This document shows positions 353 to 763 of a stretch of DNA of 8,591 bases, piece by piece. The number at the start of each line of letters is the position of its first letter. Within the stretch, counting starts at the first letter, position 1. The notes beneath the pieces were generated by a model, which was given only the letters and a program-made list of their open reading frames with translations, had not been told where the DNA came from and did not search any database. Both the position numbers and the translations under genes were made by a program. Source of the DNA: a virus (lineage: Duplodnaviria > Heunggongvirae > Uroviricota > Caudoviricetes); the IMG/VR virus record IMGVR_UViG_2547132417_000018; one strand, 5' to 3'.

Positions 353-432
353 CGTGTCTGTGAGATAGGGTACCTTATCGACCTTACCCTGGCAACCGAT
401 TGACGGGGGATTGCTCCCCCGTCGCGGTTTCC

Positions 433-573
433 TTACTGCTTACACTGTAAGAACGCCGCAAACTCCGCTCCCCAGAAGCTCATCCGTATTTCACACAGCG
501 AACCGTGCAGCATCCAGATGATGAGGATTGCCGTCACGCAGAACGTGATGGCCGTAAGCGATTTTTGCGACAT
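433..573 (-). CDS. hok: Hok/Gef-family type I toxin (46 aa), absent from the ORF track because it is short
   Basis: Minus-strand ORF from ATG (573..571) to TAA (435..433) translates to MSQKSLTAITFCVTAILIIWMLHGSLCEIRMSFWGAEFAAFLQCKQ. It has one N-terminal hydrophobic helix followed by the SLCEIR motif and a C-terminal E-x-AAFL-x-C motif, as in plasmid R1 Hok (KSLCEIR...EVAAFMAY) and HokA (SLCEL...ELAAFLACK). SD AAGGAG lies 8 nt upstream of the ATG. Confidence 0.75.
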   Translation of the reverse strand: MSQKSLTAITFCVTAILIIWMLHGSLCEIRMSFWGAEFAAFLQCKQ

Positions 574-703
574 AGCACTTGCTCCTTTTCCGGAGAGGCG
601 CTAACCTTTCACTTGTCAAGGTAATGCGGTTAGGGCCTCGGTTAAACAGATATGTTTTCCGGGGCCTTTCCACATCCGGCCTTCGGGTATTCCCTCCGAC
701 CAT
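491..703 (-). CDS. mok: mok-like overlapping reading frame (70 codons) upstream of and overlapping the hok-like gene
   Basis: Track ORF 491..703 (minus) starts 130 nt upstream of the hok ATG and overlaps it in another frame. This is the architecture of mok/hok in plasmid R1, where Mok is also 70 codons. No sequence conservation is expected, so the call rests on architecture alone. Confidence 0.35.
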   Translation of the reverse strand: MVGGNTRRPDVERPRKTYLFNRGPNRITLTSERLAPLRKRSKCYVAKIAYGHHVLRDGNPHHLDAARFAV

Positions 704-763
704 CAGCCGAAAGGCACCCGCACGTAATCTATCGCTTTTTTGTTACTCCGGCAATTCTGCCTG

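Follow-up and report, generated by a model that had tools for sequence, protein, structure and literature searches.

The window analysed here, a stretch of viral DNA of 8,591 nucleotides, very probably carries at about positions 315 to 754 a self-contained type I toxin-antitoxin cassette of the hok/sok type. It is a moron at the right end of a P88-like prophage (P2-like, Xuanwuvirus), placed between ogr and a variable cargo slot. The initial annotation had proposed that the prophage bears a type I toxin-antitoxin module at its edge, and this was borne out by the anatomy of the cassette and by its location beside ogr (1024..764, minus strand; Pfam Ogr_Delta, 52.4 bits). The underlying sequence features (the toxin reading frame and its SD, the 70-codon frame, the hairpin, the T6 run and ogr) were likewise all found where they had been placed. 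The hok gene is already known, common, already annotated and already shown to be toxic. The sole unusual trait of the locus is that it has no conserved mok leader gene, together with a leader that falls below the Rfam threshold.

The toxin reading frame encodes a 46-aa peptide, MSQKSLTAITFCVTAILIIWMLHGSLCEIRMSFWGAEFAAFLQCKQ, with the motifs SLCEIR and E-F-AAFL-Q-C. The proposed search of this peptide against Pfam returned PF01848 (HOK_GEF) at profile positions 5-42 of 42, with 29.9 bits (E = 4.1e-7) against a curated gathering cut-off of 22 bits, and PHROG 251 was matched with an E-value of 1.3e-22; the assignment as a Hok/Gef-type toxin was thereby upheld. All seven residues conserved above 80% in a catalogue of Hok peptides are kept (M1, C12, T14, L26, C27, E28 and E37, numbered M1, C16, T18, L30, C31, E32 and E41 in the catalogue logo), and C44 occupies the C/Y position of the family. 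The hok SD, AAGGAG at 587..582 on the minus strand, lies 8 nt 5' of the ATG. A chance match was excluded by the Pfam, PHROG and Rfam E-values and by the z-score of the transcript fold (both below for the RNA), and sequence comparison thus confirmed 573..433 as a genuine Hok/Gef membrane-toxin gene. The cut-offs of the HokA equivalog and of the Hok subfamily in NCBIfam were missed (NF007290, 34 bits vs 89; NF007279, 21.6 vs 73); the window peptide is not HokA and lies outside the NCBIfam Hok subfamily model. Close copies of hok differed by 16 synonymous and 2 non-synonymous changes, a tally that was not counted as evidence because the IMG/VR loci were picked by peptide identity.

The toxin gene had been described as unannotated, which proved incorrect: near-identical loci carry annotation in RefSeq and GenBank, and the exact peptide has been catalogued. 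It is identical to RefSeq WP_000078916.1, named "Hok/Gef family protein", the P88 GenBank record also annotates a hok gene, and entry 72_1621 (cluster 72) of the Hok catalogue is the same peptide (bioRxiv 10.1101/2025.08.07.668861). This entry was cloned as LRP137 and was one of 42 homologues, out of 45 tested, whose induction was toxic, the only non-toxic constructs being 19_179, 60_1482 and 69_1540; expression in that assay was non-native, from an arabinose promoter with a standard SD (bioRxiv 10.1101/2025.08.07.668861, preprint). As the catalogue analysed coding sequences only, with Sok, Mok and mRNA structure outside its scope (bioRxiv 10.1101/2025.08.07.668861), the regulatory anatomy described here is absent from it. 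Literature searches on hok in P88 or P2-like phages, and on ogr with hok in prophages, found no paper, and a search on hokX/sokX gave nothing relevant.

The module is widespread. At least 80% of positions 300-1030 of the window was present in 1179 of 5426 complete E. coli genomes (~22%). In P88-like phages the cassette adjoins ogr, and the block from the hok promoter to the fbi-like element recurs in other contexts with 73-81% identity. It sits next to lom in Stx phages, in another setting between gpJ and the gene for a tail fibre, and in a third within a TraG island. Similarity to the copies in unrelated phages stops at about position 368. Degenerate copies also exist, with a frameshift in L020 and the ending VSQKPP* in L141-143.

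A covariance-model search for hok mRNA and Sok RNA had been suggested and was partly successful. Rfam RF01794, which is named 'sok' and in practice models the hok mRNA leader, matched the minus-strand leader at 719..560 (45.8 bits, E = 6.1e-8, model positions 1-157), but this score is below the gathering score of 59 bits. Other cluster-72 leaders scored 35.6-51.1 bits, the L015 leader 80, an R1-type leader 87.2 and that of hokW 113.5. Model position 1 aligned to position 719 of the window; in phage 933W the match starts at the 5'-most base of the hokW leader (GGGTGC, locus 603), 169 nt before the annotated hokW ATG.

A TAnnnT hexamer was found 6 nt 5' of GGGTGC in most unique relatives, and a -35 element lies upstream at a kept position (Table 1). 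Judged from sequence, these elements form a weak sigma-70 promoter that would start a ~405-nt mRNA at G719. A consensus promoter scan of 250-1100 reported 0 sites at its threshold of 9 of 12 positions, which neither the hok nor the Sok promoter reaches; the hok elements were missed because only 8 of 12 positions match. The promoter calls therefore rest on homology and conservation, and the ends given for the hok and Sok RNAs are all inferred positions.

It had been claimed that any hok promoter and leader must lie inside ogr or be co-transcribed with it, a claim that followed from a wrong mok start (703). The conserved promoter (754..726) and the +1 base G719 come after the ogr stop, where the 44 nt before the leader give them room, so hok need not be co-transcribed with ogr. 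A T6 run (736-741), which had been noted as having no preceding stem, is present; read on the other strand it is simply the A6 of the hok promoter spacer. A terminator scan found none between ogr and hok, and regulation of hok by late transcription reading through from ogr is possible. The same scan placed a terminator-like hairpin with T-runs on both strands past the 3' end of hok, where it would serve hok and a plus-strand ORF of 93 aa for which no Pfam or NCBIfam match was found. P88, Chuche and many relatives have this terminator, which in some prophages is swapped for other sequence.

Table 1. Features of the hok/sok-type cassette in the window.
Feature	Position	Strand	Basis or remark
hok promoter -35, TTGCCG	749..754	-	position kept in relatives, including copies in unrelated phage contexts
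hok promoter -10, TAGATT	726..731	-	17-nt spacer, 6 nt before +1
Predicted full-length hok mRNA, ~405 nt	315..719	-	5' end G719; 3' end after terminator, approximate
tac-like 5' end, GGGUGCCUUUCGGCU	705..719	-	pairs with fbi-like 3' element or with local partner 701..685
Local tac partner (ucb-like)	685..701	-	fold of 3'-shortened RNA and pair counts
70-codon overlapping frame	491..703	-	open in window; probably not a gene as drawn
Candidate leader-ORF start, GAAGG (684..680) and AUGUGG (675..670)	670..684	-	hypothetical; not conserved across the subfamily
Leader hairpin in Sok-complementary region	634..666	-	helices 5 and 6, 95% and 86.6% paired
Predicted Sok RNA, ~55 nt	615..669	+	ends by homology with annotated 71-nt sokW (933W)
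Predicted Sok promoter, TTGCTC (579-584), 17-nt spacer, TAACCT (602-607)	579..607	+	homology and conservation
Hairpin sequestering hok SD (587..582) and first start-codon base	573..603	-	predicted fold; helix 9
hok CDS	433..573	-	46 codons and stop; Pfam, PHROG, identity to RefSeq and catalogue peptide
9-bp GC hairpin, 3' UTR	402..423	-	helix 18
dcb-like 3'-UTR strand, pairs with leader 622..609	386..399	-	helix 7
fbi-like element, GGUCGAUAAGGUACCC	368..383	-	pairs with mRNA 5' end; fold and covariation
Bidirectional intrinsic terminator	319..346	both	hok (-) and 93-aa ORF (+); terminator scan

The predicted mRNA (719..315) folded with an MFE of -173.6 kcal/mol (z = -6.85 relative to shuffles), and nt 1-15 were paired with nt 337-352. 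Across 40 unique units this tac/fbi helix of 15 pairs was paired in 94.1% of cells and 3 of its pairs were changed on both sides; three separate C-to-U variants in the fbi-like element of relatives all stand opposite G. When the 3'-shortened RNA 719..396 was folded, an alternative 5' hairpin (nt 1-35) appeared, which was paired in 96.1% of cells compared with 35-60% when the partners were slid, and had 4 pairs changed on both sides. The ucb-like strand is thus predicted to take over the tac-like 5' end once the 3' end is removed. Of the 12 pairs in the second long-range helix (622..609 with 399..386), 7 show changes on both sides, and in the modelled full-length RNA the 3' strand of this helix would mask the target of the Sok 5' tail. 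Helix 9, which holds the hok SD, was paired in 92.3% of cells across the 40 units, and the loop-proximal stem of the leader hairpin occurs among relatives in two alternative versions.

The 3' UTR had been described as structured in the manner of hok mRNA, and this description was strengthened by compensatory changes across the 40 units in both the GC hairpin and the 3' helices. The GC hairpin, GACGGGGGA-TTGC-TCCCCCGTC, is perfect at 402-423 and was extended to 10 pairs (401-424) by a hairpin scan; it was paired in 97.2% of cells, with 5 of its 9 pairs changed on both sides. By analogy with the R1 model it may act as a barrier to 3' exonucleases and so define the truncated mRNA.

For the whole structure, 91.5% of cells were paired in the 40 unique units, compared with 35-44% when partners were slid, a percentage inflated by the fact that the tested structure was taken from the window's own MFE fold. 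The number of two-sided pair changes, which this choice does not affect, was 44, relative to 19.8 +/- 2.9 in shuffled and 22-31 in slid controls, although the relatives stand close to one another and were in part selected by peptide identity, so that the counts are not independent. The covariation score was 0.159, and 0.04-0.06 in controls. This covariation supports the modelled end-paired mRNA, the alternative 5' hairpin and the GC hairpin.

The initial annotation reported no convincing Sok-like promoter on the plus strand and suggested that the antitoxin layer may be non-canonical or regulated by late transcription. A candidate promoter is given by the motif TTGCTC-17-TAACCT, found at the homologous site in 77 of 77 unique leaders even though the consensus scan reports none there, and the antitoxin layer is thus probably not missing. 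Its position is homologous to that of the sokW promoter and start site of 933W, and on the opposite strand it overlaps the hok SD. In phage 933W/Sp5, the protective, antitoxin activity was lost on mutation around the sokW -10 element (Takada et al. 2021, PMC8621323). As folded, the predicted Sok RNA consists of an unpaired 5' tail of ~13 nt and a long hairpin at 632-668, with a folding energy of -22.9 kcal/mol (z = -3.84); the U-tract after the stem is weak (UUUCC). Paired with the leader, it would leave 28 nt between the end of the duplex and the hok SD.

Hok synthesis in R1 depends on mok being translated up to the hok SD, and the 70-codon frame had been proposed as the mok equivalent. The frame is indeed open at 703..491, but it has no usable start in 22 of 55 unique close relatives with the same or nearly the same Hok, its ATG (703) has no SD and falls at nt 17 of the mRNA, and its 70-aa product matched no family in Pfam, NCBIfam or PHROG. 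These results make it very improbable that the locus is a canonical hok/mok/sok system with mok read from ATG 703, a promoter and leader within or co-transcribed with ogr, and a missing or non-canonical antitoxin. An open frame and the possible read-through from the late operon, no terminator having been detected between ogr and hok, would agree with such an arrangement. Opposed to it are the position of ATG 703, which adjoins the end-pairing helix, the startless relatives, the Sok promoter motif, and the fact that promoter and +1 accompany the module where it sits in non-P2 contexts lacking ogr.

A mok at the site homologous to mokW and R1 mok was also sought and rejected. No ATG, GTG or TTG occurs 4-12 nt after GAGGC in any cluster-72 leader, nor were near-cognate codons found there in cluster 72; the outgroups L014 and L015, as well as R1 and hokW, do have a start codon after GAGGC. 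Cluster 72 is therefore without a conserved mok leader ORF, unlike R1 and hokW, and for this reason control by Sok probably does not act through mok translation. It is possible, at slightly under even odds, that cluster 72 is a phage-borne branch of hok/sok that works without a mok ORF, having kept the folding switch, the Sok promoter and the sequestered SD, and in which Sok silences hok by another route. With Sok pairing at least 28 nt 5' of the hok SD, candidate routes are decay only, block of a standby site, or a relocated, lineage-specific leader ORF. Counting against the hok/sok cassette as a whole, no mok equivalent links Sok binding with translational silence.

A leader ORF starting at AUGUGG was promising in our first sample and was weakened by a wider one, in which several lineages do not have the site. 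As a full explanation it would have GAAGG and AUGUGG exposed after 3' processing, translation opening the SD hairpin, and Sok (from nt 51) blocking initiation. The full-length fold pairs part of GAAGGCC with 701..698 and GAAGG is single-stranded when the RNA is truncated, the same logic by which ucb masks the mok SD in R1. In the first sample an AUG or GUG frame ran on without a stop to 48 nt or less from the hok AUG in 50 of 51 unique leaders and to 30 nt or less in 45 of 51, compared with only 3 and 1 leaders for the third frame, a control that rests on one conserved stop in leaders that are not independent. In the window the GUG frame (673..491) is the 70-codon frame with a later start. However, at least 10 unique cluster-72 leaders of other lineages, with intact Hok, carry GGAAAGACGAAGG in place of the AUGUGG site, stop positions range from 1 to 79 codons, and the invariance of GAUGUGGAAAGG may instead be due to the Sok 3' end or terminator, encoded on the opposite strand. 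We consider a relocated mok of this kind unlikely.

The same absence of mok could mean that the locus is a silenced or decaying remnant, with Hok intact and never translated from its native mRNA since mok was lost. Inactivated chromosomal hok loci exist in E. coli K-12, R1 requires mok translation whereas no cluster-72 leader has a canonical mok start, and some copies (L020, L141-143) are clearly degenerate. Yet diverged lineages in different phage contexts have retained the promoters, the tac/fbi-like pairing, both alternative folds, the hairpin over the SD and the Sok promoter, with compensatory changes. Such a pattern would hardly persist unless selection still acted on regulated expression, and the module has spread to about one-fifth of complete E. 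coli genomes. A remnant is distinctly unlikely on this evidence.

For the cassette as a whole, the following sequence of events would fit the predicted structures and, for the later steps, the R1 paradigm. In the fold derived from sequence, the first 15 nt of the mRNA pair with the element just past the 3' GC hairpin (383..368), the second long-range helix (622..609 with 399..386) closes the leader, and the hok SD and start codon are held in their local hairpin. By the R1 paradigm, this full-length RNA would be long-lived, would not be translated and would give the antisense RNA no access. As its 3' end is slowly trimmed back to the GC hairpin (423..402), both 3' partners would be lost, whereupon the 5' end may refold on 701..685 and the leader open. 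Sok, a short, unstable antisense RNA of about 615-669 presumably transcribed from TTGCTC-17-TAACCT (579-607, plus strand), would pair with leader nt 51-105 and keep the processed mRNA silent, probably by way of RNase III cleavage and decay. Were the cassette DNA lost or its transcription switched off, Sok would decay first; the 46-aa Hok would then be made and inserted in the inner membrane, and the cell would die. The selected effect in the prophage would most likely be retention of the element (addiction); the cassette may in addition cause abortive infection or, as hokW is reported to do, aid lysis.

We compared the cassette with characterized systems. It shares with R1 hok/sok (parB) a Hok/Gef peptide of the C..T...LCE...E pattern and, in the predicted RNA, a length of ~400 nt with the 5' end paired to an element just ahead of the terminator, a second 5' hairpin that forms once the 3' end is shortened, and a hok SD that is sequestered. 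An antisense promoter (TTGC..-17-TA.CCT), predicted here, likewise sits directly before the hok start, on the other strand. It differs in having no ATG 8-9 nt after the leader GAGGC and thus no mok at the homologous site, in a peptide of 46 aa ending C-K-Q instead of 52 aa ending Y-E-S-G-K, and in being phage-borne rather than plasmid-borne. Compared with an R1-type plasmid copy, the window leader is ~25 nt shorter (hok AUG at +147 vs +172) and scores 45.8 rather than 87.2 bits with RF01794. In tisB/istR-1, an antisense RNA blocks a ribosome standby site, the toxin RBS is structured and antisense pairing occurs well upstream. A functional analogy with the present locus is possible, with no relation in sequence or family.

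The best experimental model of the role of hok/sok in a prophage is hokW-sokW of 933W/Sp5, which is likewise prophage-borne and has a Sok promoter and RNA homologous in position. There, HokW is made after induction once sokW disappears, and phage release was approximately doubled (Takada et al. 2021, PMC8621323). HokW (MKQQKAM..., 51 aa) belongs to cluster 35 (35_712), whereas the window peptide belongs to cluster 72, and the hokW locus has an annotated mokW and an RF01794 score of 113.5 bits.

As hok genes were already known to be enriched in prophages, the locus alone changes little. Its regulatory RNA layer is unannotated in a module carried by about one-fifth of complete E. coli genomes, and because the Rfam threshold also misses the leader, annotation pipelines show a lone toxin gene. 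An R1-type folding switch without mok, if confirmed, would mean that mok coupling is not obligatory in the hok family.

We also considered whether the relative of the window in Stx phages is hokW-sokW itself. This was rejected, since hokW is another gene according to the published primers and to the annotation of 933W; the true relative is a second, cluster-72 locus beside lom in VT2-Sakai/Sp5, with 80% nucleotide identity. This second hok locus of Sp5/933W-type Stx phages is still present in the published hokW-sokW deletion strains and may add to their partial phenotypes.

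Profile searches placed the 46-aa peptide (MSQKSLTAITFCVTAILIIWMLHGSLCEIRMSFWGAEFAAFLQCKQ) in the Hok/Gef family, as the initial annotation had assigned it: the HMM search proposed there gave 29.9 bits against Pfam HOK_GEF (gathering score 22, E 4.1e-7), and PHROG 251, "MokW-like host killing", was matched at E 1.3e-22. The peptide scored below the cut-offs of the NCBIfam HokA and Hok-subfamily models. A Shine-Dalgarno (SD) sequence, AAGGAG, lies 8 nt 5' of the hok ATG, and the other features first listed (a 70-codon frame, the GC hairpin, the terminator and a T6 run) are present. 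The gene had been described as unannotated, but RefSeq labels the ORF "Hok/Gef family protein" (WP_000078916.1), the GenBank record of phage P88 carries the note "hok/gef family protein", and phage Chuche names it "MokW-like host killing protein". The exact peptide is also entry 72_1621 of a Hok catalogue (bioRxiv 10.1101/2025.08.07.668861), in a high-abundance cluster (cluster 72), and was cloned there as LRP137; 42 of 45 assayed homologues were toxic, the three exceptions being other sequences. The hok feature is ordinary and had been both annotated and assayed for toxin activity before. By its own statement, the catalogue's analysis excluded Sok, Mok and mRNA structure. The remaining point of interest concerns the leader: it lacks mok and scores under the Rfam threshold, in a phage-borne hok lineage that is very common. 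Of 5426 complete E. coli genomes, 1179 contain at least 80% of window 300-1030 (hok and ogr).

Features of the hok region and its surroundings (nt, position along the predicted hok mRNA, with nt 1 at window G719 on the minus strand)
Feature	Position	Strand	Remarks
93-aa ORF	1-282	+	signal-peptide-like N-terminus, several Cys; phrog_27544 (unknown function), E 1.4e-48
Terminator hairpin	319-346	both	T-runs on both sides
End-pairing helix	nt 1-15 with nt 337-352 (3' side, window 383..368)	-	predicted fold
Leader/3'-UTR helix	nt 98-111 with nt 321-334 (3' side, window 399..386)	-	predicted fold
GC hairpin	nt 297-318 (window 402-423)	-	9 bp; sequence and predicted fold
hok ORF	573..433	-	46-aa peptide
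Candidate Sok promoter -35	579-584	+	TTGCTC; 17-nt spacer to -10
Candidate Sok promoter -10	602-607	+	TAACCT; motif aligns with sokW promoter of 933W
SD hairpin	603..573	-	predicted; holds hok SD and first AUG base
Predicted Sok RNA	~615 to ~669	+	ends by homology
hok promoter -10	731..726	-	TAGATT; 6 nt before GGGTGCC
hok promoter -35	754..749	-	TTGCCG; 17-nt spacer to -10
ogr	1024..764	-	Pfam Ogr_Delta; upstream of hok, same strand
Gene D	2197..1067	-	Phage_GPD; upstream of hok, same strand; intact, 376 codons

The hok promoter and leader had been expected either inside ogr or on a transcript shared with it. The promoter and +1 instead fit the 44-nt gap past the ogr stop (766..764), so nothing from ogr is needed. 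Position 1 of Rfam model RF01794 aligns to window 719; this model, although named "sok", actually describes the sense-strand hok leader, and on phage 933W its match runs from the 5'-most base of the hokW leader to a point slightly beyond the annotated hokW ATG. The hexamers occur at equal distance in most unique relatives. A consensus promoter scan reported no hok promoter, because the match is 8/12.

The predicted 405-nt hok RNA (719..315) folds with a minimum free energy of -173.6 kcal/mol (z -6.85). This fold was mapped onto 40 unique units from E. coli, Salmonella, E. albertii, Citrobacter, Erwinia, Serratia, Chimaeribacter and phage contigs. Overall, 91.5% of cells were paired versus 35-44% with slid partners, a percentage favoured by the use of the window's own fold as the tested structure. 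Two-sided changes are unaffected by that choice, and 44 pairs had changed on both sides versus 19.8 +/- 2.9 in shuffles and 22-31 with slid partners; the covariation score was 0.159 versus 0.04-0.06. Among the same units the end-pairing helix was 94.1% paired and the GC hairpin 97.2%, with two-sided changes in 5 of 9 pairs of the hairpin and 7 of 12 of the leader/3'-UTR helix. Three independent C-to-U variants in the 3' element all lie opposite G.

In a shortened RNA that ends directly 3' of the GC hairpin (719..396), nt 19-35 were the predicted new partner of the 5' end. This alternative hairpin was 96.1% paired, versus 35-60% with slid partners, and four of its pairs had changed on both sides. 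In plasmid R1, the 5' end of hok mRNA (tac) pairs with either a 3' partner (fbi) or an upstream one (ucb), and these mutually exclusive pairings mark the switch (PMC9841398). The two exclusive, conserved 5'-end partners predicted here are the signature of an R1-type switch. Because the 5' end and the leader both have their 3' partners downstream of the GC hairpin, an exonuclease that trimmed back to this hairpin would open the hok RNA.

A Sok promoter had been sought in vain on the plus strand, yet TTGCTC-17-TAACCT occupies the site homologous to that of sokW, where mutations around the -10 element abolished antitoxin activity (Takada et al., PMC8621323). All 77 unique leaders have the motif here, 61 of them identical to the window's. 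The predicted Sok combines a 13-nt single-stranded tail with a long hairpin (-22.9 kcal/mol, z -3.84); its 3' end has a weak U-tract (UUUCC) at which no terminator was called. In the predicted full-length fold the leader/3'-UTR helix and a local helix (nt 91-97) cover most of the tail's target (mRNA nt 93-105), which would be mostly exposed once the long-range helix lost its 3' partner. Such masking would agree with R1, where only the processed RNA is accessible to Sok.

The 70-codon frame had been read as mok-like. Its ATG at 703, nt 17 of the mRNA, lacks an SD, and in 22 of 55 unique relatives with the same or almost the same Hok the frame has no ATG, GTG or TTG after the last stop. R1-type and hokW leaders carry an ATG 8-9 nt past GAGGC, whereas this site is empty in the window, in the cluster-72 copy of phage Sp5 and in every other cluster-72 leader; the outgroups L014 and L015 have one. 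We also considered a relocated start, AUGUGG (675..670), behind a GAAGG that is unpaired in the predicted shortened RNA. In a first sample of 51 leaders, the AUG or GUG frame ran without a stop to within 48 nt of the hok AUG in 50, and the third frame in 3. In a wider sample, at least 10 unique leaders of other lineages with intact Hok lacked the AUGUGG site, which was dropped as a conserved feature. Stop positions varied from 1 to 79 codons. From the leaders compared, we conclude that the cluster-72 subfamily has no conserved leader ORF. In R1, mok must be translated up to the hok SD (PMC9841398), so Sok binding would probably silence translation by another route here.

Judged by its sequence, the locus probably works like hok/sok. 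As in that family, its RNA ends are predicted to pair and an alternative fold is predicted. A candidate antisense promoter is seen at the sequence level. The locus departs from the family in lacking mok at the canonical site and in its RF01794 score. The covariance-model search suggested initially did return a match for the leader, but at 45.8 bits, under the gathering score of 59. Other cluster-72 leaders scored 35.6-51.1 bits, hokW 113.5, an R1-type leader 87.2 and L015 80.

The catalogue left the role of hok in prophages open (bioRxiv 10.1101/2025.08.07.668861). R1 hok/sok lowers T4 plating, as stated in PMC8621323; HokW appears after prophage induction, once sokW is gone, and increases phage release about twofold (PMC8621323). 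Given the mechanism, the selected effect would most likely be retention of the element after its loss or transcription shut-off, with abortive infection or an aid to lysis as alternatives.

Stx phages of the Sp5/933W type contain a block 80% identical to window 368-740. Its identity with the studied hokW-sokW locus was ruled out by the published primers and the 933W annotation: HokW (cluster 35) begins MKQQKAM, has 51 aa and annotated mokW and sokW, and differs from the window's 46-aa Hok. The window's relative is a second locus adjoining lom, with hokW elsewhere in the same phage. This cluster-72 locus is seen in VT2-Sakai (AP000422; L004 3001-3375), where it is unannotated, and in ST2-8624. 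It was left in the published hokW-sokW deletion strains and may bear on their partial phenotypes.

Starting at ~313-360, the rest of the window shares 93-96% identity with P88-like phages, namely Escherichia phage P88, Xuanwuvirus P884B11, Citrobacter phage Shae_phiSM and phage Chuche. On the closest chromosome, that of E. coli UPEC132, the genes run tamB, ytfP, 93-aa ORF, hok, ogr, D, tail genes; hok is therefore phage-borne. It is the last conserved gene ahead of a variable slot at the prophage end. In UPEC132 (L002 4764-5564) and strain LS4 (L021 2259-3059) the annotation divides the D homologue into an 801-nt CDS and a pseudogene fragment after it, and these prophages may be defective. The region downstream of hok looks like a variable cargo slot. 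The 93-aa ORF matched no Pfam or NCBIfam family. In other contigs of P88-like prophages (L050, L064, L085), homologues with 74-98% aa identity follow hok; its place is taken by com and a DNA methyltransferase in Chuche and E. coli JNEC-KY175, and by another small ORF in P88. The terminator hairpin could end both the 93-aa ORF and hok; some related prophages diverge from ~358 onward and lack it. At the other end, window 8148-8591 matches a hin-like DNA invertase (92-97% identity) common to unrelated Yersinia and Escherichia phages.

The block found in Stx phages also occurs in a lambdoid prophage, where it sits between gpJ and a tail-fibre gene, and in an island, close to TraG. The sequence common to the Stx, lambdoid and island contexts runs from the hok promoter through the 3' pairing element, so the mobile unit is the transcription unit. 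Some prophages hold two cluster-72 units ~500 nt apart (IMG/VR contigs L138/L149 and L136/L151), and a Serratia inhibens contig (L014 1872-2239 and ~2827-3195) two hok units ~1 kb apart. Records titled Planococcaceae MAG, Vagococcus sp. and Xanthomonas pisi (L006, L007, L010) contain hok loci with 81-95% nt identity to the window's, probably enterobacterial contamination of those assemblies. Degenerate copies were also seen: in Stx2a phage Stx2_EH2011 (L020 1501-1867) an 8-nt deletion shifts the hok frame, and three IMG/VR loci (L141-L143) start VSQKPP and then stop.
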